Positions 3,438 to 64,000 are shown, numbered from the stretch's first letter. The stretch: 64,000 nt of DNA from Thermoanaerobaculia bacterium (GCA_038230535.1 JBBRNB010000019.1:2165-66164); one strand, 5' to 3'. The notes: generated by a model not told the origin, from the letters alone. Program-made: numbers and translations.

Positions 3438-3666
3438 CGGGTCCAGGTAGAACAAGTTACGAGTGGAATGTCATCCCGCGGCATGCAGTCATCGAATCGA
3501 CTGGTCAACACGTTGACGAGTCAATAGGAGGTGTTGAGACAAGGCGATCCCGCGGCCGGGACGGGGATGGCCGGGATTCACGGGCCGGCTTGTCAGCAGC
3601 CACGAATGGGATCGCCATCTGACGGCGGCGTCGCTGAACACGGGTACGATCGAGCTCGACCCTCAC

Positions 3667-6874: not shown

Positions 6875-6875
6875 T

Positions 6876-6962
6876 GGGGAGTGGGGTGTGGGGTGTGGAG
6901 ACGCGAATATTGAATGTTCGATGTCTGCCTCCCACTCCCCACCCCCTACTCCCCACCCCCCG
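6876..6962. repeat. G-tract/C-tract inverted element. GGGGAGTGGGGTGTGGGGTGTGG on the + strand, ~30 nt spacer, then CCCACTCCCCACCCCCTACTCCCCACCCCCC (G4 motif on the minus strand).
   Basis: Direct reading. At least 4 runs of G3 or longer on each strand. A second copy sits at 52638..52716. Confidence 0.7.
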
Positions 6963-6981
6963 GTAGCCTATACTTCACCGC

Positions 6982-7449
6982 ATGAGTGACACGCCCGAAC
7001 CAAAGCCTTGGACTTCGAAGGCGGCAAAGTACCTCGGCCTGGCCGAAAGCACCGTTCTGATTCTGATCGGATGTGCTCTGGTGCTGGTGGCGGTGTTGCT
7101 CCTTTACTCCAGCATGCATGACCTTCTGGCGGCCGCGCAAGGGGGCCCGAAGGAGATCGAGCACAAGTCCATCGAGATCCTGAACACGGTCCTGCTGGTC
7201 ATGATGACCATGGAGATCGTCTACACGGTGGCCATCTCACTCGAGTCGCACACGCTCAACGCCGAGCCGTTCCTGATCATAGGTTCCATCGCCGGGATCC
7301 GGCGCAAGCTGGTGATCACCGCCACATCGACCGAGAGCGAAACGAAACCGGCCATGTTCCACAACACTCTCGTGGAGCTCGGCCTCCTCTCGGCGACCGT
7401 GGTGGCCATGGCCGGCCATGGCCATCGCCATCTGAATACTTCGATATAG
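6982..7449 (+). CDS. PsiE-like (phosphate-starvation-inducible E family) small membrane protein
   Basis: ~155 aa, 4 predicted TM helices, IAGIRRKLVI segment resembling the PsiE family. The family assignment is tentative. Confidence 0.45.
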   Translation: MSDTPEPKPWTSKAAKYLGLAESTVLILIGCALVLVAVLLLYSSMHDLLAAAQGGPKEIEHKSIEILNTVLLVMMTMEIVYTVAISLESHTLNAEPFLIIGSIAGIRRKLVITATSTESETKPAMFHNTLVELGLLSATVVAMAGHGHRHLNTSI

Positions 7450-7570
7450 CCAACGTAGGTTTGTCGACCGGCCACCCGGCGAAGCAACTGTCGCCGAACC
7501 GGCACACCATTGACACCTGTTTCGCGCGAAGCTGGTGCGTGGTGATCTCTTCGATCAAGGAGGCTTCATC

Positions 7571-10366: not shown

Positions 10367-10410
10367 GCGCCACGATGCGCGCGGTCACCTGGGAGTACCA
10401 TAGGTGTTCC

Positions 10411-10635
10411 ATGGACTACCACGACATCATCACGATCGAACCCGGCAAGCGAGGTGGTAAGCCATGCATTCGCGGACTCCGAATCACGGTGTACGACGTT
10501 CTGTCGTTTCTTGCCGCCGGGATGACTGAAGAGGAGATCATTTCGGATTATCCGGATCTGACTCACGACGACATACTCGCAAGCCTAAGCTACGCTGCTG
10601 ACCGGGAGCGGAAAACAGCGATGTCTCACGCGTGA
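10411..10635 (+). CDS. DUF433 domain protein (putative antitoxin/HTH-like)
   Basis: ~74 aa MDYHDIITIEPGKRGGKPCIRGLRITVYDVLSFLAAGMTEEEIISDYPDLTHDDILASL is a canonical DUF433. It is embedded in the longer artefactual ORF 9997..10635, and its stop overlaps the start of the next gene. Confidence 0.7.
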   Translation: MDYHDIITIEPGKRGGKPCIRGLRITVYDVLSFLAAGMTEEEIISDYPDLTHDDILASLSYAADRERKTAMSHA

Positions 10636-10967
10636 AGCTGCTCCTGGATCACAACATCTCGCACAAGCTCGTAGCTCGATTGGAGGACGTCTTCCCGGGA
10701 AGCACCCAGACGCGCCTCTTGAATTTCGGCCGCACCGGCGATTCGCAGCTTTGGCTTTTCGCGAAGACCAACGGCTTTGTCTTCGTTACCAAGGACCGAG
10801 ACCTGGCGGAGCTGGCGATCCTGCGAGGTGCGCCTCCAAAAGTCATCTGGCTGCGCATCGGCAACTGCAAGACCCCTGTCGTCGAGCGGATCCTTCGGTC
10901 AAGCATTGATGCGATCGCCGACTTTGCGCAAGATCCAGAACAGGCTGTTCTGGAACTCTACGACTAA
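10632..10967 (+). CDS. DUF5615 family PIN-like protein (putative toxin partner of DUF433)
   Basis: ~111 aa; MKLLLDHNISHKLVARLEDVFPGS...FVFVTKDRD is typical of DUF5615, a PIN-like family frequently paired with DUF433. GTG start overlaps the upstream stop. Confidence 0.65.
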   Translation: MKLLLDHNISHKLVARLEDVFPGSTQTRLLNFGRTGDSQLWLFAKTNGFVFVTKDRDLAELAILRGAPPKVIWLRIGNCKTPVVERILRSSIDAIADFAQDPEQAVLELYD

Positions 10968-11011
10968 CAGCTCTCGCGAAGATCCGAATCCACAAGTCAA
11001 AGGCTAAAGAC

Positions 11012-13006
11012 TCACACGAAGATCCGAATCTCCTTCAGCTCCTTCAGCTTGTCCCGGATCTCCGCAGCTTTCTCGAAGTCGAGGTTCCTGGCGGCGTCCT
11101 TCATCTCCTTCGTCAGGCGGGAGATGGCTTTGTCCAGGTCCTCCCCGTCCGTGAGATCGAGACGCGCCTTTGACGAAGGGCCGCCGGGGACTTCGAAGTA
11201 GTCGAGGTTGGCCATCTTCACGAGGTCGCTGTCGATGGCTTTGATGATCGAGGCCGGCTCGATGCCGTGCTCCTCGTTGTATGTCTGCTGGATGGTGCGG
11301 CGCCTGTTAGTCTCGGCGACCGCGAAACGGATCGAGTCGGTCATCTTGTCGGCGTACAGGATGGCGATGCCGTTCAGGTTGCGGGCGCAGCGGCCGATGG
11401 TCTGGATCAGCGACGTCTGTGAGCGAAGGAAGCCTTCCTTGTCGGCATCGAGGATGGCCACGCACGAGCACTCCGGAATGTCGAGACCTTCGCGGAGGAG
11501 ATTGATGCCGACCAGCACGTCGTAGGTGCCGATGCGGAAGTCGCGGATGATGGCGATGCGCTCGAGCGTCTCCACATCCGAGTGCAGGTAGTTGACCTTG
11601 ATTCCGAGCTCCATCAGGTAACGCGTCAGGTCCTCGGACATCCGCTTCGTCAGCGTCGTAACCATGACCCGCTCGTTCTTCGCCACGCGCTCCTTGATCA
11701 CGCCGATCAGATCGTCGACCTGTCCCTTGACCGGCCTGATGTCGATCTGAGGATCGAGCAGCCCAGTCGGACGGATGACCTGTTCGGCGAAGAGACCCCC
11801 GGTCTTCTCCATCTCGAACGGCCCGGGTGTGGCGGAGACATAGACGATCTGCGTCAGCTTTCCTTCGAACTCCAGAAACGACAACGGCCGGTTGTCGATG
11901 GCGCTCGGCAGCCGGAACCCGTACTCCACCAGCGTCTCTTTTCGCGCACGGTCCCCTCCCCACATCGCACGCACCTGCGGGATAGTCTGGTGCGACTCGT
12001 CGACAACGAGGAGAAAGTCTTTCGGGAAGTAGTCGATCAGAGTCGGCGGCGGTTCACCTTTCAGCCGGCCGGATAGATGCCGCGAATAGTTCTCGATGCC
12101 ATTGCAGTAACCGAGCTCCGCGATCATCTCCAGATCGAACATCGTCCGCTGCGACAGGCGCTGTGCCTCGAGGAGGCGGTCGTTGGCGCGAAGCTCGGCC
12201 ACGCGCTCGTCGAGCTCGACCCGGATGTTCGTCATCGCCACCATCAGACGCTCGCGCGGAGTGACGTAGTGTGTGCGTGGGTAAACAGCCAGGCGGTCGT
12301 ATTCGTGGCCCGAAGTACGGCCCGTGATCGGATCGATCCGCGTCATCTTGTCGATCTCGTCGCCGAAGAACTCGATGCGCACCGCATCGTCTTCATAGGC
12401 CGGCCAGAGCTCGAGGACATCTCCGCGCACGCGGAACGTGCCGCGGGCCAGATCGTACGGCGTCCGCTCGTACTGCATCTCCGTCAGGCGGCGCAGGTAT
12501 TCGATCATGGGCTGATCAACGCCGCGCTCGAAGAAGACCAGCATGGAGTGGTAGAGGTCGGGATCGCCGATTCCGTAGATGCACGACACCGACGAGACGA
12601 TGATGACGTCGCGGCGCTCGAAGAGAGACTTCGTCGCCGCCAGCCGCAGCTTGTCGATCTCGTCGTTCTTCGTCATCTCCTTTTCGATGTAGAGGTCGTT
12701 CTGCGGGATGTAGGCCTCGGGCTGGTAGTAGTCGTAATAGGAGACGAAGTACTCCACCTTGTTCTCGGGAAAGAAGTTCTTGAACTCCTGATAGAGCTGT
12801 GCCGCCAGCGTCTTGTTGTGGCTGAGCACGAGCGTGGGCCGGTTGACTTCCTCGATCAGCCTGGCGACCGTAAAGGTCTTACCCGAACCGGTCACGCCGA
12901 GGAGCACCTGATCGCGCGTGCCGGCCTTCACGCTCTCGGTGAGCTGCCGGATGGCCTCGGGCTGATCGCCCTGCGGAGTGAATGGGGAGACGAGTTTGAA
13001 GTTCAT
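11012..13006 (-). CDS. uvrB: Excinuclease ABC subunit B (UvrB)
   Basis: 664 aa, [19 protein letters not shown]..., Walker A GVTGSGKT, helicase motifs, C-terminal UvrC-interaction helix. Confidence 0.95.
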
Positions 13007-15835: not shown

Positions 15836-15992
15836 GGAGTAGTGGAGTAGTGGATCAGTGATCGGTGGATCAGGCACAATTGCGCCCCACGCCTGAACCA
15901 AAGCCGCGTTCCGCATACCTGTCATCCAGGATGACAGGAAGGGCTTGGCCCTTGTTCCTGATCCACTGATCCACCTGTCACTGATCCACTGA
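15836..15992. repeat. GATC-rich inverted-array intergenic element (TGGAGTAGTGGAGTAGTGGATCAGTGATCGGTGGATCAGG ... CCTGATCCACTGATCCACCTGTCACTGATCCACTGACC). The loop contains the palindrome CCTGTCATCCaGGATGACAGG.
   Basis: Direct reading at a convergent gene junction. Confidence 0.8.
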
Positions 15993-16268
15993 CCCACGGA
16001 CACGCCGAATGTATGCGCAGACAGCCAGAGCGCTCAACCCCGTTACCAGCCAAAGTGCAATCCACCCCACCGGCGCCGATCGCATCCAGTTCCACAAAGC
16101 CAGCGTGATCGCCCAGAGACCGTAGACGAAGAGAAACATCCGGCGGTGACCGCGGTCGTCTTCGACACCGGCGGCGATGCTTCCGCCGAGGATCATCGTG
16201 GGGATGAGGCCGAAGACGATGTTCAGGATGTGAATCACGAAAGGGTCACGTCCGATACCGCACGTCAA
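15978..16268 (-). CDS. Small hydrophobic membrane protein, last gene of the rSAM/GT operon
   Basis: ~96 aa, 3 predicted TM helices. It overlaps the stop of the upstream rSAM gene. The start is uncertain. Confidence 0.35.
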   Translation of the reverse strand: MTCGIGRDPFVIHILNIVFGLIPTMILGGSIAAGVEDDRGHRRMFLFVYGLWAITLALWNWMRSAPVGWIALWLVTGLSALAVCAYIRRVRGSVDQ

Positions 16269-21420: not shown

Positions 21421-21600
21421 TGTGGAGTAGATTAGTGGATTGGTAGCTCAGTCGATCAGGAACCCCAGCCGCGAAGTCTTGATTGGAGTCGATCACTGGA
21501 TCAGGCGATCCGTTGACCGGGAGTCCCCAGGTTCATTCCGACCGAGCTCCGTCGTCCTGATCCACTAATCTACTAACCTACTGATCCACTGATGGACTGA
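21421..21600. repeat. GATC-rich inverted-array intergenic element (divergent promoter region)
   Basis: TGGAGTAGATTAGTGGATTGGTAGCTCAGTCGATCAGG ... CCTGATCCACTAATCTACTAACCTACTGATCCACTGATGGACTG. Confidence 0.75.
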
Positions 21601-23796: not shown

Positions 23797-23925
23797 TCGA
23801 TCGGTGATCAGTAGATCAGTGATCAGAGGAGCAGTGGATCAGGACAGAGGTTGACTCAGTGGTACTTAGAAGAGAAACACCGCCTTCTGACCCACTCATT
23901 GCGAATCCACTGATCGACTGATCCA
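23797..23925. repeat. GATC-rich inverted-array intergenic element
   Basis: GATCGGTGATCAGTAGATCAGTGATCAGAGGAGCAGTGGATCAGG ... GAATCCACTGATCGACTGATCCATC. Confidence 0.75.
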
Positions 23926-25020
23926 TCACACGTTGAAGCGGAAGAGGATCACGTCCCCGTCCTGTACCACGTAATCCTTTCCTTCGCTTCGCATCTTCCC
24001 GGCTGCCTTTGCGGCCTGCTCTCCACCGAGGGAAACGTAATCGTCGTACCCAATCGTTTCGGCCCGGATGAAACCGCGCTCGAAATCGCTGTGAATCTTT
24101 CCTGCTGCCTGTGGACCCTTCGAGCCGCGAGGAATCGTCCATGCGCGCGCTTCTTTTGGTCCCGCGGTGAAGAATGTCTCGAGCTCCAGGAGTGTGTACG
24201 CGGCGCGGATCAGGATGTTGAGGCCCGGCTCATCGAGACCCATCTCCGCCAGAAAACCGTCGCGCTCGCCGGGTGGGAGTTGCGAGATCTGCGCCTCGAG
24301 CTCGCCGCAGATAACGACGACCTCTCCTTTCTTCTTCGCAGCCACGTTCCGGACCTGTTGCAACAACGGCGTCTCGCTGCCGAGGTCTGACTCCGCGACA
24401 TTCGCCACGTAGAGCACAGGCTTCAGCGTGATGAGACTCAGCTCGGCCAGCGCCGCGCGTTCGTCGTCGGTGAGGTCGACTGCGCGCAGCGGCGTCCCTT
24501 CATCGACCGCGGCCTTCGCCTTTTCGAGCGCCTCGGCTTGTGCGATGTACTCCTTCTGACCGACCCGAGCGAACCTGCTGACGCGGTCGAGTTTCTTGCT
24601 GATGGCATCGAGATCGGCCAGCAACAGCTCGGTCTCGATCACCTCGATGTCACGCTCCGGATCGACCGATCCCTCGACATGCATGACGTTCGGATCGTCG
24701 AAGCATCGCACCACGTGCAGGATGGCGTCGGTCTCGCGTATGTTGGCAAGGAACTGGTTGCCGAGCCCCTCCCCTTTCGACGCGCCCCGCACGAGTCCGG
24801 CGATGTCGACGACTCTGAGGTCGGTGTAGACAGTTTGTTTGCTCTGCGCAAGTGCCACGAGCTTGTCGAGCCGCGCATCGGTGACCGGAACGATGCCGAC
24901 GTTCGGCTCGATCGTGCAGAAAGGATAGTTGGCGCTCTGAGCCCCAGCAGCCGTGAGCGCGTTAAAGATCGTCGACTTGCCGACATTCGGCAGCCCGACG
25001 ATTCCGACAGAAAGACCCAT
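23926..25020 (-). CDS. ychF: Ribosome-binding ATPase YchF (Obg-family GTPase/ATPase)
   Basis: [24 protein letters not shown]1 motif, C-terminal TGS domain, 364 aa. Confidence 0.95.
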
Positions 25021-26057: not shown

Positions 26058-26224
26058 GAATCAGTGGAGCAGTGGAGCAGTGGAGCAGTCGATCTGTAAT
26101 CAGGCGGCCTGATTCTATCGACCAATCCACTGATCCACTGATCCACTGATCGACTTCTCTACAGTCGATCCGTAGTCAGGAAGCCTGATTCTGATCGACC
26201 AATCCACTGATCCACTGATCGACT
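26058..26224. repeat. GATC-rich inverted-array intergenic element, tandem double copy (CAGTGGAGCAGTGGAGCAGTGGAGCAG ... CCACTGATCCACTGATCCACTGATCGAC, then a second partial copy)
   Basis: Direct reading. The loop has the palindrome AATCAGGCGGCCTGATT. Confidence 0.75.
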
Positions 26225-52002: not shown

Positions 52003-52110
52003 CAGATCAGTGATCGGTAGATCGGCAATCAGGACAAGCCGCATATTCCTGATCCACTGATCTACTAATCCACTGATCTACTGATCACCGATCTTCTGAT
52101 CACCGATCAA
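52003..52110. repeat. GATC-rich inverted-array intergenic element (compact copy) with a short loop containing AAGCCGCATATTCCTG
   Basis: CAGATCAGTGATCGGTAGATCGG ... CCTGATCCACTGATCTACTAATCCACTGATCTACTGATCACCGATC. Confidence 0.75.
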
Positions 52111-52731: not shown

Positions 52732-53421
52732 ATGCCCGAGTCCATCCCGTTTCGTAACCGCTCGCACGAAGTCTCTCGCATCGAGGCGTTCAGCGACGTC
52801 ATCTTCGGCTTCGCCATCTCGCTGCTCGTCGTGTCGCTGGAGGCTCCGAAGACGTATGCGCAGATGATGGAGATGCTGCACGGCTTCCTGCCGTTCGCCA
52901 TCTGCTTCTGGCTCTTCATCGACATCTGGTTCGAGCATCACCACTTCTACAAGCGCTACGCCTTGCATGACTCGATGACGATGGCGCTGAACACGTTCCT
53001 GCTCTTCGTCATCCTGTTTTACGTCTATCCGCTGAAGTACATGTTCACGCTGTTCACGCAAGGCATCCTCGGGCATCCGGCCGAGATGCCGGCCGGCGGC
53101 GCGGCATTCCTCTACACGATCTACGGAATCGGCGTGACATCCGTCTTCTGGCTTCTCGCGGCGATGTACGGTCACGCGTGGCAGTGCCGCGCGCACCTTC
53201 AGCTCAATGGGGTCGAAGAGATCGACACGCTGGAACGGGTCTACAACAACTTCTTCATGGGCCTCTTCGGAGTGATCTCCATCGTGCTCGCGCGGACGCC
53301 GTTGTTTCGATTCGCGGGGATGGTCTACTTCCTGCTCTGCATTCCGAAGACACTCGTGCCGTGGATGATGGGGATCAAACGGCGTAAACGCGAACAAGTG
53401 ATGCTGGCGGAAAAGGCATAG
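52732..53421 (+). CDS. DUF1211/TMEM175-like membrane protein (putative K+ channel family)
   Basis: RIEAFSDVIFGFAISLLV has the RxxxFSD signature, with 6 TM helices. The ATG at 52732 lies inside the listed ORF 52348..53421. Confidence 0.7.
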   Translation: MPESIPFRNRSHEVSRIEAFSDVIFGFAISLLVVSLEAPKTYAQMMEMLHGFLPFAICFWLFIDIWFEHHHFYKRYALHDSMTMALNTFLLFVILFYVYPLKYMFTLFTQGILGHPAEMPAGGAAFLYTIYGIGVTSVFWLLAAMYGHAWQCRAHLQLNGVEEIDTLERVYNNFFMGLFGVISIVLARTPLFRFAGMVYFLLCIPKTLVPWMMGIKRRKREQVMLAEKA

Positions 53422-53425
53422 GAAA

Positions 53426-53497
53426 GTGTAGGGCCGCCCCCTCGGCGGCCTTGCCCTGATTCGCAAGATGATGGCCGCCGGGGCGGCGGCCCTACAC
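53426..53497. repeat. REP-like palindromic doublet between convergent DUF1211 and MFS genes
   Basis: GTGTAGGGCCGCCCCCTCGGCGGCC ... GGCCGCCGGGGCGGCGGCCCTACAC. Confidence 0.8.
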
Positions 53498-54706
53498 TCA
53501 CGACTTCCACAGCCTCCACGTCCACGCGCCCCAGACGAGCGACCAGAGCACGCAGACCGAGGCAACGCCGGCGGTGGCAGCCATCGCACCGAAGCGGTCG
53601 GCGGCGATGCCGGCGACGAGGCTGGAAATACTCATCGTCAGCGTGACGAAGCCGTAGTCGGCGCCGAAGACGCGGCCTCGGATCCAGTCAGGCGTTTCGC
53701 GCTGAAGACCGTACGTCGATGTCTGCCACTGCGCGCCCCCGCCGAGGTGCGCGGCGAAGACGGCGAATGAGCCAACCAGCAGAGTGCGTGAGAGGCCGAG
53801 CGCCATGTATCCCGCTCCGAAGAGGAAGACGGACGCGGCGATGAGGCGGTATTGGAGATCGCCCTTCCGCCCGGCCATGGCACGAATCAGGAACGGGCCG
53901 AGCAGCGCGCCCACTCCGCGCGCGGCAAAGAGAAGTCCGATGCCGAAAGCGCCTGCGCGAAAGACTTCCCTGCCGAAGACGCCGAGCATGGCCACCACGC
54001 CGGCACCGAGTCCGTAGCCGCCTTTCGACGTCAGCAGCGCCAGGACGCGCGGATGGGCGCGGGCGTAGCGCAGCGTCTCTCGCGTCGACTCGATGAGCGC
54101 CGGGCGTTCGTGATGAGCAGCCCGCTCCTCGGCGAATTGTGCGCGCATCCGCCAGAGAATCCCTGCCGAGGCCACGAAGCTCAGCGCATCGACAACAAAG
54201 GAGACATCGCGGCCGAAGCGCATCGTTACCAGGCCGCCCAGCGCAGCACCGACGGCGAGCATCGTCCCCCACGTCGATCCCATCAGCACATTCGCCGCGG
54301 AGAGCTCGCTCCCATCGACCAGATTCGGCAGCGCTGACTGCGACGCCGGCTCGAAGTACGCCGAGCCAACGGAGATGAGAATCACGCCTGCGTATGCGAA
54401 CGGCAGCATCGCCGGCGTGCGTGCCAGCAACGGCAGCAGGCACGCGCCGGCGCGGATCAGGTCGACCACGATCATCAGCTTGCGGCGGTCGGCGTGATCG
54501 ACGGTGTGTCCAGCGACCGGCGTCACCAGAAATATCGGAAGCGACTGGCAGAGCAACATCAGCGAGGCCAGCGTGGCCGAGCCGGTGAGCTGGAGCACGA
54601 GATCGAGCAGAGCGACGGTGAGAAACCAGTCCCCCCCGAGGGAGATCAGCGAGCCCAAGTACAGCAGCCGGAAATCGCGGTTGTTGCGGAGGAGCCGCCA
54701 GTACAT
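53498..54706 (-). CDS. MFS transporter
   Basis: 12 predicted TM helices and a GRxxDRxGRR-like loop (DHADRRKLM). 402 aa. Confidence 0.8.
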   Translation of the reverse strand: MYWRLLRNNRDFRLLYLGSLISLGGDWFLTVALLDLVLQLTGSATLASLMLLCQSLPIFLVTPVAGHTVDHADRRKLMIVVDLIRAGACLLPLLARTPAMLPFAYAGVILISVGSAYFEPASQSALPNLVDGSELSAANVLMGSTWGTMLAVGAALGGLVTMRFGRDVSFVVDALSFVASAGILWRMRAQFAEERAAHHERPALIESTRETLRYARAHPRVLALLTSKGGYGLGAGVVAMLGVFGREVFRAGAFGIGLLFAARGVGALLGPFLIRAMAGRKGDLQYRLIAASVFLFGAGYMALGLSRTLLVGSFAVFAAHLGGGAQWQTSTYGLQRETPDWIRGRVFGADYGFVTLTMSISSLVAGIAADRFGAMAATAGVASVCVLWSLVWGAWTWRLWKS

Positions 54707-54906
54707 GCGCCGCGCATCGTACCGCTGAGATCCTTGGTAGCGTCCGGAGGCCTGCGTCAGTCTCGAACGTGGACGAGTGTCGCTGTTTCAAATGCGCGAG
54801 AGCGCACGGTTTGCGCGCGAAGGAGGGTAGGTCCCGATTTTGCCCGGCTCGGATGGGTGCGGGAGAACTGCCGCCGTGTCCCTCCAACCCTAGAAGGAGA
54901 AAGCCC

Positions 54907-55155
54907 ATGGCGAAATGCAAGCCGTACCACTCCGATTCTGATGAATCTGGGCAGAACCGCGAAGTGCATCACGATCACGACGACTGCTACGAGGGCAAGA
55001 AAATCGAAGCGAAGCACCTGGAAGAGTGGCACTGGAGACAAGCCGCGCTGCAAAGAGTGCATCCGGCTCGGTTAGCAGACGCGTTCACGGAACGTGATCT
55101 CCCAATGGGGTCCGGTTGGTTCGTTCCCGTCCAGGACATTCCAGACGCGGCGTAA
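54907..55155 (+). CDS. Small hypothetical protein (82 aa), His/Asp/Cys-rich N-terminus
   Basis: Strong RBS (GAAGGAGAA) 6 nt before the ATG. MAKCKPYHSDSDESGQNREVHHDHDDCYEG... Moderate GC3. Confidence 0.4.
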   Translation: MAKCKPYHSDSDESGQNREVHHDHDDCYEGKKIEAKHLEEWHWRQAALQRVHPARLADAFTERDLPMGSGWFVPVQDIPDAA

Positions 55156-55467
55156 CTGATCTACTGGCAAGCCGCATCCTGGACATACCGAAAGAGCGCA
55201 AGAGAACGGGTTGGCCCTTCAAGGTGTACAATCACATCCGTCATTCCATCTACAGGACGAAACGGTGAAGTGCCTTCTAGCGAGGCGGCAGAGGAGGGTT
55301 CTCGTGATGCGCTCGGGTCGCTTGGTACACCCTCCTGGCGGTTGCGTGCGAGGTTGGCCGCTGAGTTCTAAGCTCGTGATTATCCGGTCCTCCTCATTGA
55401 CGGCGGCTTCCGGCCCATTGAGCAGGCAACGCGCCGTCCGCTCAATCTCGAGGAGCCAGAGCGGGCC

Positions 55468-56037
55468 ATGCTGATTCCGATGGAGAGAGGTTTCGATCCC
55501 GCATCAAAGGCACTCTCGTCGTTCGTCGCTTTGGACTTCGAGACGGCGAACCGGGATTTCGGCTCTGCGTGTGCTATTGCGGCGGTCCAGGTATTGTCCC
55601 GAGAAGTCGTGCGAAGGCTCAAATTCGTACTGAACCCTGGGCCCGTTACGTTCGAATTTGCGGAAATTCATGGCATCACGCGGGAGCTGGCATCCGCTGG
55701 TGTGACGTTTGACCTCGCGTGGCGCGAGATCGAGCCACTGATTCGCGAAACAGGGTTCATTGTCGTAGCACACAACGCGAAGTTCGACAGGAGGGTCCTT
55801 CAAGCAACGGCACGCCGCCACACGGTACGCCTGCCAAAGGTGCGATTCATCTGCTCGCGGAATCTTGCAGAAGCAGTCTGGGGTCTGCGCCCAAACGATC
55901 TTGCGACGGTTGCTGCGTATCTCGGCATCCCGCTGGTTCATCACGATCCTCTCTCCGACGCCGAGGCTGCCGCGCGAATCGTACTTGCCGCGGAAGACGA
56001 AAAGCTCGCTCGGCTTGCGAAGGAGGTACAAGCGTGA
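55468..56037 (+). CDS. DnaQ-like DEDDh 3'-5' exonuclease (stand-alone), first gene of the cas operon
   Basis: Exo I ALDFETAN, Exo II VAHNAKFD, Exo III HHDPLSDAEAAARI. The TGA stop overlaps the GTG start of cas3. Confidence 0.75.
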   Translation: MLIPMERGFDPASKALSSFVALDFETANRDFGSACAIAAVQVLSREVVRRLKFVLNPGPVTFEFAEIHGITRELASAGVTFDLAWREIEPLIRETGFIVVAHNAKFDRRVLQATARRHTVRLPKVRFICSRNLAEAVWGLRPNDLATVAAYLGIPLVHHDPLSDAEAAARIVLAAEDEKLARLAKEVQA

Positions 56038-58712
56038 AGAACGCGCCTCAGTACTACCGTTACTGGGGAAAGGCACAGGGCGATTCTCCGGAGTCGTGGC
56101 ATCCACTCGTCTACCACATGCTGGAGGTTGGTGCCGTTTGTGAGATTTTCCTCGAACACGACAGAACGATCGTCAGGTCGGTCACACGGTCGAGTGGTCT
56201 CACGGAGAGCAGCGTCCGGAGCTTTCTTCCATTTCTCGCCGCCGTTCACGATCTGGGAAAGTTCGCCGGGAGCTTTCAGGATCTGAAACCGGAGATCGTC
56301 TCGAAGCTCCATGGCTCGCGTAGCGTCTCTCCGTACACAGTGAGGCACGATCGGCTGGGCTACGTTTTCTGGAGTGACGTTCTCAGTCGCCGAAGTTGGG
56401 ACAGCGGCTGGCCACTCGCGGCTGTCGATGACAGGGACGACTGGGACTTCGCCGTGTATCGTGACGCGATGGATCCATGGCTTCGTGCAGCAACTGGACA
56501 TCATGGACAGCCGCCTGGGATCAGTGCCCTAAAACCTGCGTCACAGTCGTTCTCGGCGACGGCATGCAACGACGCGATACAATTCGTTCGTGACCTGATG
56601 AACATTCTCCGGCCGCAACCGTTACTCTTTCGCGACGCGTACTCAGCGGAGTCTGCGCTGAACACTTCGGCCTGGTCAGTAGCGGGCCTTACAGTGCTCT
56701 GTGACTGGATCGGCTCAAATCAGAAGTGGTTTGAGTATTGCGCTGACGTCGTCCCGCTTGAGGAGTACTGGACGCGATCCCTCGGTAAGGCCCGGGATGC
56801 TGTGAGACAGACGGGCATTCTGCCGAGTCGCGTATCATCGAATCTGGGTATGGGTGCGCTTTTCCCGTCCTTTGAGCCCAGCCCTCTTCAGACATGCGTT
56901 GAAACGGTATTTCTCGGTGACGGACCCCAGCTTCTGATCGCGGAAGAGATCACAGGGAGTGGCAAGACCGAAGCCGCGCTCATTCTCGCGCACCGAATGA
57001 TCGATGCCGGACTCGCTGACGGGATCTACATCGCTCTACCGACGATGGCAACAGCCAACGCCATGCACGGCCGGCTTGACTCGAAGTACAAGCTTCTATT
57101 CGATGATGGCGAGCCTGCATCGCTTGTGTTGACTCACAGCGCTCGCCATCTCGACGATGCAGCATCGGACCACTGCACTGTGTGGCTGGCCGACCATAGG
57201 AAAAAGGCTCTGCTCTCGCAAGTCGGAGCCGGGACGGTCGACCAGGCCCTGCTCGGCGTTCTTCCTTCGAAACACAATGTGCTTCGCCTGCTAGGACTCC
57301 AGCGCAACGTTCTCATTGTCGATGAGGTCCATGCATATGACTCATACGTGAGCCGGATACTCGAGCGGCTGCTCGAGTTCCACGCGGCTCTCGGCGGCAG
57401 TGCGATTCTGCTGAGCGCTACGCTGCCGAAGCCGGTGCGTCAGCGATGTGTCAATGCATTCTCAAAGGGCCTTGGGCGCAAGCCTCCGCAACTCGGTCAG
57501 GATGCCTATCCTCTTCTGACACAGGTTGGCGGTGATGGCTTGTCGGAGATCCCACTCGAAACGCGCAGCGGCTCACGGCGGCAGGTGAAGGTGGAGTTTC
57601 TGGAATCCTATGATGCTGCTGTAGAGGCGATCGTGAATGCCGTGATGCGGGGACGCTCCGCCTGTTGGATTCGCAACAGCGTGGTCGATGCGATCGAGGC
57701 CTACGAAACGATCGCGAACCGGCTCGGCGGGCACATCGTCACGCTATTCCATGCGCGCTTCATGATGGGAGATCGCCTGGCGGCTGAACGGGACGTCGTG
57801 AACCGGTTTGGTCCATCAAGCGGGCACGCGGAGCGCGGCGGAAGAGCCGTGATCGCGACGCAGGTGATCGAACAGTCGCTTGATCTCGACTTTGACGTGA
57901 TGGTGTCGGATCTGGCACCGATCGATCTGCTGATTCAGCGTGCGGGACGGCTCCAACGCCACACCCGCACCGAAGAAGGAGACAGGACGGCGGGAGTCGA
58001 ACAGCGGTCTGCTCCGGTTCTGCAGATTCTCGCTCCGCGCTGGAGCGAAGAGCCGGAGCCGGAATGGCTTACCGCACTGCTGCCCAGAACCGCGCGCGTC
58101 TACGGGCACGTTGGTCAGCTCTGGCTTTCAATGCGAATTCTCCTCGACCGCGGCTGCATCGCGCTCCCGGATGACGCGCGTCTACTCATCGAATCCGTTT
58201 TCGGAGACGATGCCTGGGACCGAGTCCCTGAAGGTCTTGGTAACGCTTCCCGCAAGTTCGAAGGAGAGCAGAGCGCGAAAGCCTCACTTGCGGGATTCAA
58301 CGCGCTCGTGCTCCGCGATGGATACAAGAGCACGCCCGCTCATTGGATTGAGGATACAGTGACTCCCACACGCCTGAGCGAGCCGACGACGACGGTGCGC
58401 CTGGCGCGGCGTAGCAATGGAACCCTCGCTCCGCTGTTCGATCACGCAAAATATCCGTGGGACATGAGCCAAGTCTCTGTCAGGCGCGCACTGGTCGCCA
58501 ATCGGTCAGCCAGCTCACCGGAAGAAGAACGAATGGTTAAGGATGCCGAGGAGTTGATGCGCGACAAAGGCAAGTGGAGTTTGACTCTGGTCGTCGAGCC
58601 GGCAGTCCCAAGCGGGTGGCGTGGACGGGCTCTCGACGCGGGCGGTAACCCTGTCGAGACCCGATATGACCAACGTCTCGGTCTTCTCATCCGAAAGGAA
58701 GTAGATCAATGA
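56034..58712 (+). CDS. cas3: CRISPR-associated helicase/nuclease Cas3 (type I-E; HD nuclease + SF2 helicase)
   Basis: N-terminal YYRYWGK (E. coli Cas3-like), HD motif HDLGKF, Walker A GSGKTEAAL, DEVHAYD box. ~892 aa from the GTG at 56034 with an AAGGAGG RBS. The listed 997-aa ORF includes an out-of-context N-terminal extension. Confidence 0.9.
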   Translation: MKNAPQYYRYWGKAQGDSPESWHPLVYHMLEVGAVCEIFLEHDRTIVRSVTRSSGLTESSVRSFLPFLAAVHDLGKFAGSFQDLKPEIVSKLHGSRSVSPYTVRHDRLGYVFWSDVLSRRSWDSGWPLAAVDDRDDWDFAVYRDAMDPWLRAATGHHGQPPGISALKPASQSFSATACNDAIQFVRDLMNILRPQPLLFRDAYSAESALNTSAWSVAGLTVLCDWIGSNQKWFEYCADVVPLEEYWTRSLGKARDAVRQTGILPSRVSSNLGMGALFPSFEPSPLQTCVETVFLGDGPQLLIAEEITGSGKTEAALILAHRMIDAGLADGIYIALPTMATANAMHGRLDSKYKLLFDDGEPASLVLTHSARHLDDAASDHCTVWLADHRKKALLSQVGAGTVDQALLGVLPSKHNVLRLLGLQRNVLIVDEVHAYDSYVSRILERLLEFHAALGGSAILLSATLPKPVRQRCVNAFSKGLGRKPPQLGQDAYPLLTQVGGDGLSEIPLETRSGSRRQVKVEFLESYDAAVEAIVNAVMRGRSACWIRNSVVDAIEAYETIANRLGGHIVTLFHARFMMGDRLAAERDVVNRFGPSSGHAERGGRAVIATQVIEQSLDLDFDVMVSDLAPIDLLIQRAGRLQRHTRTEEGDRTAGVEQRSAPVLQILAPRWSEEPEPEWLTALLPRTARVYGHVGQLWLSMRILLDRGCIALPDDARLLIESVFGDDAWDRVPEGLGNASRKFEGEQSAKASLAGFNALVLRDGYKSTPAHWIEDTVTPTRLSEPTTTVRLARRSNGTLAPLFDHAKYPWDMSQVSVRRALVANRSASSPEEERMVKDAEELMRDKGKWSLTLVVEPAVPSGWRGRALDAGGNPVETRYDQRLGLLIRKEVDQ

Positions 58713-60289
58713 GTCCATACAACCTGCTTGCGGAACAATGGATCCGAGTCCGTCGCGCATCAGGATTGTTAGATTGGATTGCGCCATGGCAGATCGCGGA
58801 GATCGACGATCCGGCCATGAGGATCGAGAGCCCCCGTCCCGATTTCGACGGCGCGCTGATCCAGTTCCTGATTGGGCTGGTGCAGACGGCAGCCGCACCG
58901 GCAACAAAGATAGCTTGGCGCAAACTGCTAGATCACGCTCCCCAGGATCTGCGTGAGAAGTTCGATGGCGTCGCGGAGGCATTCAACCTCGACGGCCCGG
59001 GCCCGCGGTTCATGCAGGATCTGACACTGAAATCCTCCGACGTTGATGGGACAAAGCCGGTCAGTGCTCTCCTGATCGATGCGCCGGCTGAATTCTTCGT
59101 GAAGCCGGGACTGGTGTGCGCGATAAGCTATCCGATGGCCGCAATTGCTCTGTACACGTTGCAGGCCAATGCTCCGAGTGGCGGCGTGGGGCACCGCACG
59201 TCGCTCCGTGGTGGCGGCCCGCTGACAACCGTGATTCTCGGCGATACCCTGTGGCGCACTGTGTGGCTCAACGTAATGACAGAGGATGATTTCATCGGAG
59301 GGCCCGGAAACTCAGATCGCGATCAAGCCGGAGCCAAGTTCCCGTGGATGGCGCTCACACGCACGAGCGCGAAGCAGGGTGGCCGGTCAACGACGCCTGA
59401 AGACGCGCATCCCCTTCAACACTACTGGGGAATGCCACGTCGTATCCGACTGAATTTCGATGATACGGCCACAGGGCGCTGCGACTTGTCCGGTGTAGAG
59501 GCAACGCTCGTTACAAACTACATCACGAAGAATTACGGCACGAACTATGAGGGAGCATGGATTCATCCGCTCACACCTTACACGCTGCAGAAGGAAGGAC
59601 AACCGCCGAATCCGAAGAAGGGGCAGCCGGACGGCATTCCCTATCGTGACTGGCCGCAGCTCGTGCTTGCGGGCAAAGAACGCCTCCGCGCACGAGTCGT
59701 CGCTGTATACGAGAGCGACCGTCGCTTCGAGCAGCAGGCGTCACCGCAGTTATGGGTGTTCGGCTACGACGTCGACAACATGAAACCACGCTGCTGGTAC
59801 TCGGGCACCACCCCAATTTTCCCGCTCGCTGAAGAGCGGCACCAGCGGGCGTACGCCGGCCGGATGCAGCAATGTATCGACGCGAGCGAGGACGTTCGAA
59901 AGACGATGATTCAGCAGCTCAAGGCAGCACTGCTGCGCAGACCGCAGGATCGCAACGGAGATCTGTCGTTCCTGTCTCGGCAGTTTTGGGCTGATACCGA
60001 GTCCCGATTTTTCGGCGTTGCGCGACGAATTCACGATGCAATTGTCGATAACTCGGACGACAGTCAGGCGCGGGAGGAATGGCTGGCCGCGATTCATCGC
60101 GCCGCGCTTCGGATCTTCACCTTGAACTCACAGGAGGCTGGCGAATTCGCGGATGCCGACGTGAAGCGGATCGCCGTCGCATGGAACAACCTCATTCAAT
60201 TTACGTCGCCGCGTAGCAAGAAGCTCCGCGGCATCGTCGATCTTGCGCCTGTCCCGGATGCAAAGGATCAAGGAGGAACAGATGTCTGA
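58709..60289 (+). CDS. cse1: Cse1/CasA (Cas8e) large subunit of Cascade
   Basis: NLLAEQWIRVR, similar to E. coli CasA N-terminal NLLIDNWIPVR. LRGGGPLTT resembles LRGGTPVTT. ATGA overlap with cas3. Confidence 0.88.
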   Translation: MSPYNLLAEQWIRVRRASGLLDWIAPWQIAEIDDPAMRIESPRPDFDGALIQFLIGLVQTAAAPATKIAWRKLLDHAPQDLREKFDGVAEAFNLDGPGPRFMQDLTLKSSDVDGTKPVSALLIDAPAEFFVKPGLVCAISYPMAAIALYTLQANAPSGGVGHRTSLRGGGPLTTVILGDTLWRTVWLNVMTEDDFIGGPGNSDRDQAGAKFPWMALTRTSAKQGGRSTTPEDAHPLQHYWGMPRRIRLNFDDTATGRCDLSGVEATLVTNYITKNYGTNYEGAWIHPLTPYTLQKEGQPPNPKKGQPDGIPYRDWPQLVLAGKERLRARVVAVYESDRRFEQQASPQLWVFGYDVDNMKPRCWYSGTTPIFPLAEERHQRAYAGRMQQCIDASEDVRKTMIQQLKAALLRRPQDRNGDLSFLSRQFWADTESRFFGVARRIHDAIVDNSDDSQAREEWLAAIHRAALRIFTLNSQEAGEFADADVKRIAVAWNNLIQFTSPRSKKLRGIVDLAPVPDAKDQGGTDV

Positions 60290-60800
60290 GCCTTCAGAAC
60301 GGCCGGTTTCTACAGAGAACGAGGCTGCCGCTGAGGAACTGGGGCCGGTCGTTCGTCGCTGGTGGGCTGCACTTGACGGGCGGCGTGGAGACCGTGCTGA
60401 CCTTCGGCGTGCTCGAACGCCGGCGGCCGTAGCGTTTCTGCCGGCGTATCACGCCCTTGTCCGCGATCTCCGCCGGGCCGGTGTTCATTTGATTGGAGAA
60501 ACAAGTGCCGTGATCGCGGGGGTCCTCCCGCACGTCGAGCGAGACGAATCCGTCCGAAGCTTCGCCAAACAGATGGCGTCCGAGCACAACGGCAAGGCTC
60601 GGGTAAGCGGACTGCGTTTTCGGAGGCTCCTGGCCGTCGACGATCCAGCAGAGTTGCAGACCTCTCTCGTCAGGACAATTCGACTGCTCGACAGAACGGC
60701 CGCGGTAGGCGACCTGGCCGACTCAATTCGCTGGTGGAATGACAGAACGAAGAAACGATGGGCGTTGGACTATTACAGGACCGCGCCGAACGAAGATTGA
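60282..60800 (+). CDS. cse2: Cse2/CasB (Cas11) small subunit of Cascade
   Basis: ~172 aa alpha-helical protein. The WWNDRTKKRWALDYY region resembles E. coli CasB WWGKRERQQLLEDFV. The ATG overlaps the cse1 stop (ATGTCTGA). Confidence 0.85.
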   Translation: MSEPSERPVSTENEAAAEELGPVVRRWWAALDGRRGDRADLRRARTPAAVAFLPAYHALVRDLRRAGVHLIGETSAVIAGVLPHVERDESVRSFAKQMASEHNGKARVSGLRFRRLLAVDDPAELQTSLVRTIRLLDRTAAVGDLADSIRWWNDRTKKRWALDYYRTAPNED

Positions 60801-60825
60801 AGCCCGACGAAAGAATGGAGGCCCT

Positions 60826-61941
60826 ATGAGTGAATTCATCCAGATCCATGCGCTGACCGTCTATCCTCCCGGAAACCTCAACCGTGACGATCTCGGGCGG
60901 CCGAAGACGGCGATATTCGGAGGCACGCAGCGCTTGAGAATCTCCTCGCAGAGTTTGAAGCGCGCGTGGAGAATTTCGGACATTTTTTCGGCCGTACTTG
61001 CCGGCCACGTTGGTAAGCGCACGAAAGACATCGGCAACTACGCGTACGGTAAGTTGATCGAAAGGAACGTTGCATCCGATCGAGCGGATGAGCAATCAAA
61101 ACGGATCGCCGAGGTCTTCGGGAAACTCAAGGCAGTGAAGGAGACGGACGGCAAGAAGAGCCCCAAGGCACCGAAGGAAGCCAAAGCCGGCAAGGAAGCC
61201 GCAAAACACGCATCCGCGGGAAGGCAGATCGAACAGCTCGCGCATATCGGCCCCGCCGAGTTGGCGGCTCTCGACGCGCTCCTCGACCGCATCGCCTCGG
61301 GCGATACGCCTTCGAATGACGAATGCGCCGCGCTCCTATCAGATGCACACGGCGCGGCCGACATCGCGCTCTTCGGCAGGATGCTTGCCTCCACGCCTCA
61401 GAGAAACGTTGATGCCGCAGTCCAGGTGGCGCACGCAATCACCGTACACAAGGTCACGGTGGAGGATGACTACTTCACTGCTGTCGACGACCTGAACGAC
61501 GGTTCTGAAGATTCAGGCGCTGCGCATATCGGAACGACAGAATTTGGGTCGGGCGTCTTCTATCAGTACATCTGCATCGACCGCTCACTACTCGAAAAGA
61601 ACCTTGACGGGAACCGCGGACTGGCGAGCCTCGCGCGCCGCGGCTTGGTCGAAGCATGTGCGAAGATCGCGCCGTCAGGAAAGCAGAACAGCTTCGCCAC
61701 ACGTGCCCGCGCCGGCTACATGCTCGCCGAGCGAGGTGAAGAGCAGCCTCGCAACCTCGCGATGGCGTTTCTGAAGCCGGTCACCGGTGACGATCCTCTC
61801 GAGTCCGCGATTCGGTCGCTCGAAGAAACTCTCGGCAGGATGGACAAGGTCTATGGCCCGTGCGCCAGTGGGCGGTACACATTCAACGTACCAGCGGGAG
61901 AAGGCTCACTACAGAAGCTCCTCGACTTCGTGGCTGAGTGA
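60826..61941 (+). CDS. cas7e: Cas7e/CasC Cascade backbone subunit
   Basis: MSEFIQIHALTVYPPGNLNRDDLGRPKTAIFGGTQRLRISSQSLKRAWR closely parallels the E. coli CasC N-terminus. GGAGG RBS. Confidence 0.9.
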   Translation: MSEFIQIHALTVYPPGNLNRDDLGRPKTAIFGGTQRLRISSQSLKRAWRISDIFSAVLAGHVGKRTKDIGNYAYGKLIERNVASDRADEQSKRIAEVFGKLKAVKETDGKKSPKAPKEAKAGKEAAKHASAGRQIEQLAHIGPAELAALDALLDRIASGDTPSNDECAALLSDAHGAADIALFGRMLASTPQRNVDAAVQVAHAITVHKVTVEDDYFTAVDDLNDGSEDSGAAHIGTTEFGSGVFYQYICIDRSLLEKNLDGNRGLASLARRGLVEACAKIAPSGKQNSFATRARAGYMLAERGEEQPRNLAMAFLKPVTGDDPLESAIRSLEETLGRMDKVYGPCASGRYTFNVPAGEGSLQKLLDFVAE

Positions 61942-61948
61942 GGAATCG

Positions 61949-62698
61949 ATGCAGGCCTATCTTCTTTTTCGACTCTTCGGACCGATGGCGGCGTGGGGCG
62001 ACATTGCGATCGGCGAGCGTCGCCACATCTTTTCACAGCCCACGAAATCGGCAATCCTCGGGCTCGTCGCGGGTGCGCTGGGCCTTCGTCGTACGGACGG
62101 CGAGCAGCTTGCCGCACTGCACGATGGCTACGGCTTTGGGAGCCGTGTCGATTCTCCGGGTTTTCTTCTCACCGATTTTCACACTGCGCAGACGCCGCCG
62201 GAATCGGCGGTCAGGCGTGCGAAGGGCTTCCGGACACGGCGGGATGAACTGAGTATTCGACGGAGCGACCTCGAGACAATTCTCTCGTATCGCGACTACA
62301 GCACCGACGCGCTCGCTGTTGCCTGTGTCTGGCCAGTGGAGGGTGCGCCGTATTTGCTCGAGCAATTAGCCGAGGCTCTTCGCCGTCCGGTCTTTGCGCC
62401 GTACCTTGGACGGCGATCGTGCTCACCCTCGCTTCCGTTCGCGCCGCAAATCCTGGAGGAGAGCAGCCCGGTCGCAGCGCTGCGGGGCGTGACGTTCCCG
62501 GATGACGAGCTTCTGAAAAGCATCGTGAGCAGTGGGACGCGAAGCTACTACTGGGAAGGCGAGATCCCGGACGACATCAAGCATCTGCAGACAATCCGCC
62601 GGCGCGATGTCGCCCGAAGCCGGATTCAGTGGCAGTTCGCCGAGCGCGCCGAACACCATGCGGTGGAGGAGAACGCGAATGTTTCTGAGCAGAATTGA
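61949..62698 (+). CDS. cas5e: Cas5e/CasD
   Basis: MQAYLLFRLFGPMAAWGDIAIGERRHIFSQPTKSAILGLVAGALGLRR parallels E. coli CasD MRSYLILRLAGPMQAWGQPTF... Confidence 0.9.
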   Translation: MQAYLLFRLFGPMAAWGDIAIGERRHIFSQPTKSAILGLVAGALGLRRTDGEQLAALHDGYGFGSRVDSPGFLLTDFHTAQTPPESAVRRAKGFRTRRDELSIRRSDLETILSYRDYSTDALAVACVWPVEGAPYLLEQLAEALRRPVFAPYLGRRSCSPSLPFAPQILEESSPVAALRGVTFPDDELLKSIVSSGTRSYYWEGEIPDDIKHLQTIRRRDVARSRIQWQFAERAEHHAVEENANVSEQN

Positions 62699-63350
62699 GC
62701 TATGCGACGACGCCGCGCGGACAGCGCAGTTCTGGAAGCACATCGCGTCAATGAACGACGTTCATCATGTCGTCTGGTCGTGGTTTGCCGACAACCCCGA
62801 CCGTAAACGCGATTTCCTTTATCGGCACGAGGGGCAAGGGCTCACGACACGTTTTTTCACGCTCTCGACCCGGCTTCCTCTCGATTCGCGTGGCCTTTGG
62901 CGCATCGAGAGCAAACCGTTCGCTCCAAAGCTTGCCTCTGGCGAGCAGTTATTCTTCTCACTCCGTGCGAATCCGACGCGCAAGAAGAGTGACGGCTCGG
63001 GTAAGGGAAAGCGCCATGACGTCGTGATGGATGCGAAGCTGGTTGCACGGACCGAGGGAGGTGCGCCGAAGCCATTCGCCGAGCTCGTTGAGAGGGAGTG
63101 TATCGACTGGCTCGCGTCGCGAGCCGAAGCTTGCGGCTTCGAAATTGCGGAGGGAGACGTCCGCACGGACGCGTACCGGCCGGTCCGGTTCCCGCGCGGC
63201 AGGGGTCAGGCCGGCGCCTCGGTCACGATGGTCGACTATGAAGGACGCATTACTGTTCGCGACGTGTCTCTCTTCCTTCAATCGGTGATGCAGGGAATCG
63301 GCCCGGCGAAGGCCTTCGGCTGCGGGCTGATGCTGGTCAGGAGACTCTGA
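62679..63350 (+). CDS. cas6e: Cas6e/CasE pre-crRNA endoribonuclease
   Basis: MFLSRIELCDDAA..., C-terminal GIGPAKAFGCGLMLVRRL (E. coli GIGPAKSMGCGLLSLAPL). The start overlaps the cas5e stop. Confidence 0.9.
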   Translation: MFLSRIELCDDAARTAQFWKHIASMNDVHHVVWSWFADNPDRKRDFLYRHEGQGLTTRFFTLSTRLPLDSRGLWRIESKPFAPKLASGEQLFFSLRANPTRKKSDGSGKGKRHDVVMDAKLVARTEGGAPKPFAELVERECIDWLASRAEACGFEIAEGDVRTDAYRPVRFPRGRGQAGASVTMVDYEGRITVRDVSLFLQSVMQGIGPAKAFGCGLMLVRRL

Positions 63351-64000
63351 TGCTCCCGCCGCTGAAGCCGATCGCCATCAAGGAGCGTGTATCGATGCTC
63401 TTCATCGAGAAGGGCCAGATCGACGTCATCGACGGCGCCTTCGTGGTCGTCGATGTCACCGGAGTGAGGACACAGATTCCGGTAGGAAGTGTCACCTGCC
63501 TCATGCTCGAGCCGGGGACGCGCGTGTCGCATGCGGCCGTTACGCTGGCCAGCCGGGTGGGCTGTCTCCTCGTGTGGGTTGGCGAGGCAGGCGTGCGTGT
63601 GTATGCCGCCGGTCAGCCAGGCGGTGCGCGCTCGGATCGTCTGCTCTATCAGGCTCGCCTCGCTCTCGACGACGACGCGCGCCTAAAGGTCATTCGCAAG
63701 ATGTACGCAGTGCGCTTCGGCGAAGACGCACCGCAGAAGAGGAGCATCGAGCAGCTTCGGGGAATTGAAGGAGCGCGAGTACGCAGCATGTACGAACTAC
63801 TGGCACAGAAGGTTGGGATCACGTGGAAGCGAAGAAACTACGATCCCGAAGAGTGGGACCATGGCGACGTAGCCAATCGTTGTCTGAGTGCAGCGACGAG
63901 CTGCCTATACGGTGTAACCGAGGCCGCGGTTCTGGCGGCGGGGTATGCACCGGCGATCGGGTTTCTGCACACTGGAAAACCGCGTTCGTTTGTCTACGAT
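63350..64000 (+). CDS. cas1: Cas1 integrase (type I-E), partial; continues beyond the window end
   Basis: MLPPLKPIAIKERVSMLFIEKGQIDVIDGAFVVVDVTGVRTQIPVGSVTCLMLEPGTRVSHAAV ... YGVTEAAVLAAGYAPAIGFLHTGKPRSFVYD is near-colinear with E. coli YgbT/Cas1. Not in the ORF track because it has no in-window stop. ATG overlaps the cas6e TGA. Confidence 0.9.
   Translation, partial: MLPPLKPIAIKERVSMLFIEKGQIDVIDGAFVVVDVTGVRTQIPVGSVTCLMLEPGTRVSHAAVTLASRVGCLLVWVGEAGVRVYAAGQPGGARSDRLLYQARLALDDDARLKVIRKMYAVRFGEDAPQKRSIEQLRGIEGARVRSMYELLAQKVGITWKRRNYDPEEWDHGDVANRCLSAATSCLYGVTEAAVLAAGYAPAIGFLHTGKPRSFVYD

Follow-up and report, generated by a model that had tools for sequence, protein, structure and literature searches.

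A standalone DnaQ-like exonuclease gene at the head of a type I-E CRISPR-Cas operon, a candidate prespacer trimmer

What does a DnaQ-like exonuclease do at the head of a type I-E operon? The question is raised by a 64,000-nt stretch of DNA from a Thermoanaerobaculia bacterium (GCA_038230535.1, JBBRNB010000019.1:2165-66164; hereafter the window), in which positions 55468-64000 on the plus strand almost certainly belong to an ordinary, complete chromosomal type I-E CRISPR-Cas locus. A sequence-only reading of this DNA had named seven Cas proteins here (Cas3, Cse1, Cse2, Cas7e, Cas5e, Cas6e and Cas1), preceded by a DEDDh exonuclease, and our profile searches agree with all of these identifications; searches with hidden Markov models (HMMs) placed each of the seven proteins in an I-E Cas family. 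The fuller statement, that we are dealing with a complete I-E locus whose leading DnaQ-like exonuclease (exo) is a prespacer trimmer, we consider reasonably probable.

The identity of the locus is carried by its subtype-specific Cascade genes (cse1/cas8e, cse2/cas11e, cas7e, cas5e and cas6e), all of which are present in canonical order. Their products score above the curated NCBIfam/TIGRFAM cut-offs of the I-E models (casA, 293 bits with a cut-off of 70; casB, 85; casC, 327; casD, 168; casE, 149), as does the part of Cas1 encoded in the window (cas1_ECOLI, 302 bits). Cas3 exceeds the cut-offs of two domain models (TIGR01587 cas3_core, 215 bits; TIGR01596 cas3_HD, 65 bits) and scores 482.6 bits (2e-144) with the full-length equivalog NF007248, which is under the 569-bit cut-off of that model. 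Cas1e and Cas2e match their PADLOC profiles at 5e-120 and 1e-38, respectively. Cas4 was not found among the operon genes in NCBIfam/TIGRFAM and Pfam profile searches.

The window ends within cas1, and the sequence-only reading had expected cas2 and the array just downstream. Cas2 and the start of an array were found there, on an independent 11,707-nt Logan contig (L001) retrieved with the exonuclease and Cas3 sequences (an exact Cas6e search gave no match). L001 is identical to window positions 52912-64000 at 11,089 of 11,089 bases and extends 618 nt further, to window-equivalent 64618; it completes cas1 (303 aa), adds a 99-aa cas2, and ends inside the repeat CGTTCCCCACACGCGTGGGGATGAACC, 48 nt past the cas2 stop codon. 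This is the one repeat of this genome's own array that is visible, and full arrays are seen only in relatives. In one of these (L002), with Cas proteins 71-91% identical to those of the window and an exonuclease 78% identical, the same repeat occurs 23 times with a 61-nt period, the first copy lying 76 nt after cas2; in four others (L003-L006) the repeat likewise lies 47-77 nt past cas2. With only 47-77 nt between cas2 and the first repeat, the leader either is unusually short or shares sequence with the 3' end of cas2. On folding, the repeat gives a 6-bp G:C hairpin with AUGAACC(G) after it, a layout that we take to be that of the E. coli I-E repeat. We also noted that a conserved TT(T)A-N-AATTGGT-like motif precedes the first repeat in L001 (11631-11707, window-equivalent 64542-64618) and in L002-L006. 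As the earlier reading had reported, no CRISPR-like spaced repeats were detected by a repeat scan of the 64-kb window; no Rfam family exceeded its threshold in the window, and Rfam CRISPR-DR families had no match in the array of one relative.

Compared to the I-E system of E. coli K-12 (cas3-casABCDE-cas1-cas2 plus array), the locus has all nine core genes of that system, in the same order, and no cas4; the visible start of the array is directly 3' of cas2 and co-oriented with it, the repeat is 29 nt long with a GC hairpin, and in the relatives its period is 61 nt; presumably the two repeats also share the 3' segment A-U-(G/A)-A-A-C-C-G. In contrast to the E. coli system, cas2 is followed very closely by the repeat (after 48 nt here and after 47-77 nt in relatives), a WYL/helix-turn-helix (HTH) regulator gene lies upstream in relatives though not in this locus, and an extra DEDDh gene, translationally coupled to cas3, stands before it.

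The exonuclease encoded by this extra gene is apparently catalytically competent, judging from an intact pentad and its predicted fold. The pentad residues, D23 and E25 (in DFET), D107 (in NAKFD), and H159 and D164 (in HHDPLSD), are invariant or nearly so in our alignments; the Exo I (D-x-E), Exo II (D) and Exo III (H-x4-D) motifs are all present, and PF00929 matches above its cut-off. An AlphaFold2 model (predicted local distance difference test [pLDDT] 93.2; predicted template modeling score [pTM] 0.87) has the RNase H-like DnaQ fold. In the PDB, its top Foldseek matches (probability 1.00) comprise DEDDh enzymes only, namely the DinG exonuclease domain of S. aureus, the PolC-type exonuclease of T. 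maritima, ExoX, the Cas2-DnaQ domain of S. thermophilus, RNase T and epsilon. Among solved structures, the nearest in sequence are the PolC-type exonuclease 2p1j (29% identity), ExoX and epsilon. Two candidate identities were rejected. Many NCBIfam DnaQ-type models match the protein only below their cut-offs, including the ExoX equivalog, and DnaQ proper (the Pol III epsilon subunit) falls far short (NF004316, 25 bits for a cut-off of 196; TIGR01406, 24 for 223; NF004844, 124 for 373). The match to the PADLOC defence candidate PDC-S48 is limited to about positions 24-164, the exonuclease domain, of profiles of 411-512 positions.

The structural neighbors of the model include RNase T, ERI1/3'hExo and other RNA exonucleases, which would suit an enzyme that, like RNase T, trims RNA, namely the 3' ends of CRISPR RNA (crRNA) or of its precursor. 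We consider such a role very improbable indeed, as the nearest sequence relatives are instead DNA exonucleases (PolC exonuclease, ExoX and epsilon), and the 3' hairpin of type I-E crRNA is retained, bound by Cas6e, so that it needs no trimming.

A search of 5.8 billion clustered proteins returned 177 matches at E<=1e-5, and among the best 120 of the 177, which we examined, exactly the top 12 (P0001-P0012; 56-100% identity over the aligned region) carry two private features: the motif NLAE[AS]VWGLRP, and a C-terminal extension, AE-[DRL]-[EQ]-KL-x-RLA-x-EVQ-[GSA], which lengthens the last helix (161-188 in the model). The closest named relative of the window's exonuclease comes from a metagenome-assembled genome of the Thermoanaerobaculia (Acidobacteriota). 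In all seven clade members with readable surroundings (P0001, P0006, P0008, P0009, P0010, P0011 and P0012), a I-E cas3 gene lies directly 3' of the exonuclease gene, usually with a 4-nt overlap and otherwise with very tight spacing, and this linkage is kept where Cas3 is only 44-47% identical to that of the window and the flanks differ. By percent identity across four relatives (exonuclease, 78, 76, 61 and 57; Cas1, 91, 92, 83 and 84; Cas3, 74, 77, 44 and 44), the divergence of the exonuclease tracks that of the whole locus. In the window, the exonuclease gene overlaps cas3 by 4 nt (GTGA), with GGAGG within its last codons; the K/A-E-V codons of the tail double as the cas3 Shine-Dalgarno sequence (GGAGGT/AGAGGT). 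A docking function of this conserved tail is conceivable. On the strength of the linkage, and of a GC3 (GC content at third codon positions) as low as that of the cas genes (0.63, compared to 0.83 for the neighboring MFS gene), we have good confidence that the exonuclease is a functional part of the I-E locus.

We considered that the gene might instead be an independent repair or defence gene that merely shares the island and has no CRISPR role. The wider family is indeed mostly not linked to cas genes. No cas genes lie near P0014 (49%) or P0020 (48%), two homologs outside the clade, and among the matches listed for more distant homologs (25-44% identity), 159 of 160 loci have no I-E genes within 10 kb. 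Moreover, the protein matches the exonuclease domain of PDC-S48, and DEDDh exonucleases can act alone in defence, according to PMC13344964. Nevertheless, the 4-nt overlap or tight spacing with cas3 persists across lineages in which Cas3 is 44-47% identical and the flanks differ, the clade has diverged from its unlinked relatives and bears private motifs, and the PDC-S48 match spans only about 140 of 411-512 profile positions; we therefore judge independence improbable.

Two loci outside the clade bear on how often such enzymes become associated with CRISPR systems. P0013 (52%, without the clade motifs) is encoded at 3505-4044 of L089, 2.5 kb from type III-B genes at 6534-11573 (Cas02710, RAMPs and Cmr5), and may represent a separate CRISPR association of the wider family. 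The sole exception among the 160 distant loci, the 2-kb metagenome contig L141, has a DEDDh gene (37-534, 28% identity) upstream of a cas3 fragment (1167-1856, 36% identity), which hints that the arrangement of a DEDDh gene before cas3 arose more than once. A scan of genome contigs with the clade alignment showed no I-E-linked homolog (32-44% identity) among the matches listed; a second metagenome scan, with the single exonuclease protein as query, gave distant homologs only among the matches listed; a degenerate DNA pattern for NLAE[AS]VWGLRP, validated on the relatives' loci and on the window, had no match in metagenome or viral contigs; and tblastn against plasmids with the exonuclease found homologs of <=40% identity only, none informative.

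Profile evidence for CRISPR membership proved uninformative. The PADLOC Cas-associated profile PDLC01247 (DEDDh) matches the exonuclease over its full length (7.5e-22), and we rejected this match as evidence of membership because unlinked homologs of housekeeping type score higher (83-98 bits) than the cas-linked clade (67-77 bits). For the same reason, automated calls of a "DEDDh cas gene" made with this profile are no evidence of CRISPR association. The membership of the exonuclease among CRISPR ancillary proteins rests on its conserved gene neighborhood, not on this profile.

What, then, would the exonuclease do? To our knowledge, type I-E systems lack Cas4, and for this reason trimming is its likeliest job; the best-supported role in our analysis, and the most likely one, is that of trimming prespacer 3' ends for Cas1-Cas2. 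Exonuclease activity, a DNA substrate and the trimming role are all properties that we infer for this protein. Under the proposed scheme, Cascade (Cse1, Cse2, Cas7, Cas5 and Cas6e) would carry crRNAs cut by Cas6e from the 29-nt hairpin repeats, Cas3 would degrade matched DNA, and Cas1-Cas2 would insert new spacers, while the exonuclease would shorten prespacers bound by Cas1-Cas2 at their 3' overhangs to integration size, with the side bearing the protospacer adjacent motif (PAM) removed last; it would act in trans, as the host enzymes DnaQ and ExoT do in E. coli, and its trimming would parallel that by the Cas2-fused DnaQ/DEDDh domain in S. thermophilus and Megasphaera. Systems without Cas4 use fused or recruited exonucleases (PMC10284694), and standalone DEDDh exonucleases are widespread CRISPR ancillary components, as PMC10284694 states, citing Makarova 2020. 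Furthermore, in S. thermophilus the DnaQ domain of Cas2-DnaQ acts as a prespacer trimmer, and an inactive Cas2-DnaQ mutant is rescued in part by Pol III epsilon and ExoT acting in trans (PMC10470216).

The nearest functional parallel, the Cas2-DnaQ/DEDDh fusion of S. thermophilus DGCC7710 and Megasphaera NM10, shares with our locus the subtype and the presumed need for prespacer 3' trimming without Cas4 (PMC10284694, PMC10470216), and shares with the exonuclease the superfamily, the catalytic pentad and the fold (8h2f, E 4e-8, TMq 0.69). In contrast to the fusion, the exonuclease is a separate protein of 189 aa whose gene lies 8 kb upstream, at the other end of the operon, and the 99-aa Cas2 carries no such domain. 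Membership of the fusion group was rejected, as Cas2 is unfused (it has only the Cas2e domain) and identity to 8h2f/8h18 is 18-19%; a PDB search with the clade profile gave no Cas2/DEDDh chain at E<=1. Sequence comparison thus points to independent recruitment rather than to a split Cas2-DnaQ fusion. With the host trimmers of the DnaQ family (E. coli Pol III epsilon and ExoT; ExoX; PolC-type exonuclease), the protein shares a standalone DEDDh fold and the proposed action in trans, whereas those are housekeeping enzymes unlinked to cas genes and this one is operon-encoded and bears clade motifs. As a standalone DEDDh gene inside a cas operon, it resembles the "DEDDh" ancillary category of Makarova 2020, as cited in PMC10284694, and it fits this recognized, loosely defined category of standalone DEDDh CRISPR ancillary genes, as a rare kind. 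In the literature searched, in which that classification was represented by PMC10284694, we found no description of a I-E cas3 with a DEDDh gene coupled at its 5' end.

Several observations weigh against prespacer trimming for Cas1-Cas2. The exonuclease gene lies at the cas3 end of the operon, maximally far from cas1-cas2, and a role linked to Cas3 fits this position equally well. At 18% identity to 8h2f, the protein is not closely related to the DnaQ domain fused to Cas2, so that function cannot be transferred by orthology, and the PDLC01247 match adds nothing, given the higher scores of unlinked homologs. Finally, conservation of the C-terminal tail may be partly an effect at the nucleotide level, because the K/A-E-V codons also form the cas3 Shine-Dalgarno sequence.

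A Cas3-linked role is the main rival, and we regard it as unlikely. According to this explanation, the exonuclease is a partner of Cas3, not of Cas1-Cas2, at the interference or primed-adaptation step, where it would resect or degrade 3' ends that arise from nicking and unwinding by Cas3, or would make prespacers of the Cas3 degradation products; the clade-specific C-terminal helix might serve to dock it on Cas3. It would account for the constant position of the gene directly upstream of cas3, with translational coupling, for the helical extension private to the clade (helix 161-188 in the model), and for the distant DEDDh gene (28% identity) that also precedes cas3 on L141. However, the position at the 5' end may only reflect where an insertion spares the operon, and the experimental precedents for DnaQ-type enzymes in I-E systems concern trimming of Cas1-Cas2 prespacers (PMC10284694, PMC10470216). 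The two explanations also overlap, since primed adaptation joins both modules, and they are not mutually exclusive. A bolder version, to which we would likewise assign a rather small chance, is that the clade represents a dedicated "Cas" exonuclease that is coupled to Cas3, and with it a distinct way of processing prespacers that arose by independent recruitment; its private C-terminal helix would dock on Cas3 or on a primed-acquisition complex of Cas3 with Cas1-Cas2. If so, the degradation products of Cas3 would be trimmed straight into integration-ready prespacers, and interference and adaptation would be linked physically in a manner unlike that of the Cas2-DnaQ fusion.

Trimming of prespacers for Cas1-Cas2 remains the role that we prefer. 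For I-E systems, what is established about the trimming and orientation of prespacers comes only from Cas2-fused DnaQ domains and from host enzymes added in trans. An operon-encoded, unfused DEDDh enzyme that has stayed beside cas3 while the locus diverged deeply is a third case, and a clean one to test: it can be removed, mutated or provided on its own, which could show whether a dedicated trimmer acting in trans gives better spacer length, PAM fidelity and spacer orientation, and whether its partner is Cas3 or Cas1-Cas2. The locus is otherwise a standard I-E system and DEDDh proteins are already in the literature as CRISPR ancillary nucleases; its chief use is as a convenient natural system in which to test prespacer trimming in trans.

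Table 1. Features of the type I-E locus, in window coordinates
Feature	Position	Strand	Profile match
Presumed promoter region, non-coding, 5' of the operon	55156..55467	+	
exo, standalone DEDDh (DnaQ-like) 3'-5' exonuclease, 189 aa, operon gene 1	55468..56037	+	PF00929 RNase_T 3e-13
cas3, HD nuclease + SF2 (superfamily 2) helicase, 892 aa, GTG start	56034..58712	+	TIGR01587, TIGR01596, PF18019 Cas3_HD, PF22590
cse1/cas8e, Cascade large subunit, 526 aa	58709..60289	+	TIGR02547 4e-87, PF09481
cse2/cas11e, small subunit, 172 aa	60282..60800	+	TIGR02548 7e-24, PF09485
cas7e, Cascade backbone, 371 aa	60826..61941	+	TIGR01869 2e-97, PF09344
cas5e, 249 aa	61949..62698	+	TIGR01868 3e-49, PF09704
cas6e, pre-crRNA endoribonuclease, 223 aa	62679..63350	+	TIGR01907 2e-43 (aligned from residue 1), PF08798
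cas1e, codons 1-217 of 303 inside the window	63350..64000, continues beyond	+	TIGR03638 2e-90
cas2e, 99 aa, beyond the window, on L001	window-equivalent 64242-64541		PF09707/Cas2e
First CRISPR repeat, beyond the window, on L001	window-equivalent about 64590-64618		

The coordinates of these features are collected in Table 1, with start codons chosen by profile alignment (the alignments begin at residues 1-7, except for Cse2, at residue 24). In gene order, the junctions measure -4 (GTGA), -4 (ATGA), -8 (ATGTCTGA), +25, +7, -20 and -1 nt, and GGAGG or GAGG motifs precede the gene starts. The tight coupling described in the sequence-only reading was borne out by these values, although its list of junctions missed two overlaps, one of 20 nt between cas5e and cas6e and one of 1 nt between cas6e and cas1e (TGATG). 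The genes from the exonuclease to cas2e are probably transcribed as a single unit. Within Cas7e, we noted in the translation a Lys/Ala-rich stretch, KAVKETDGKKSPKAPKEAKAGKEAAKHASAGR, at residues ~125-160 (window 61200-61310), a possible insertion with respect to the I-E profile; residues 3-343 of the 371-aa protein cover the entire 325-position profile.

The composition of the locus sets it apart from its surroundings, as the earlier reading had proposed. When computed for each gene, the GC content at third codon positions (GC3) is 0.63 for the exonuclease gene and 0.63-0.71 for the cas genes, compared to about 0.78-0.86 for flanking genes, among which are those for AspRS, DHQ synthase and a major facilitator superfamily (MFS) transporter (0.83); a block of low GC3 seems to start near 54900. 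In relatives, the same operon lies between unrelated flanks. Both the low GC3 and the differing flanks are consistent with the horizontal acquisition that had been suggested, without proving it, and more specifically with acquisition of the exonuclease and cas genes as one unit. The wider surroundings look chromosomal, with genes for UvrB, TruB, AspRS, DHQ synthase, a carboxyltransferase and a TonB-dependent receptor with a CarboxypepD_reg domain.

Immediately 5' of the operon (55156..55467), scans showed no sigma-70 consensus site and no inverted repeat. In five relatives, a gene for an HTH-WYL-WCX regulator lies directly 5' of the exonuclease gene (L002, 8692-9705; L003, 8810-9775, an open reading frame not called in the annotation; L004, 5257-6258; L005, 2314-3327; L091, 1475-2458), whereas the window has no such gene at this position. 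A tblastn search with the relatives' regulators gave a weak match of 34 aa with 44% identity at 55372-55473 (E 0.004), and an HMM built from five WYL sequences scored just 4.3 bits on the same upstream stretch. The weakly matching segment, 55372-55467, is in frame with the exonuclease start codon and abuts it, and may be the deletion relic of a WYL/HTH regulator gene, although these scores are too low to support such a claim. On L004, a 133-aa HIRAN-domain gene (6269-6670) lies between the regulator and the exonuclease, with a 4-nt overlap with the exonuclease start; because HIRAN domains bind DNA 3' ends, this gene is a possible second accessory of the locus at that position.

Elsewhere in the window, we observed intergenic arrays of a GATC-containing octamer (GATCYACT) at 5355-5572, 15842-15997, 21427-21597, 23803-23926, 26064-26223 and 52051-52089, in which a minus-strand block is usually followed by a plus-strand block to form large imperfect palindromes. 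A 15-mer from these arrays occurs 40 times compared to 0.3 expected, and the family looks like a genome-specific intergenic repeat. A tandem repeat at 3664-3849 has a 21-nt period, about 8.8 copies and the consensus CACGAGAATCTCGCGAATATC; since 21 is divisible by three, a protein repeat of 7 residues may be encoded here.

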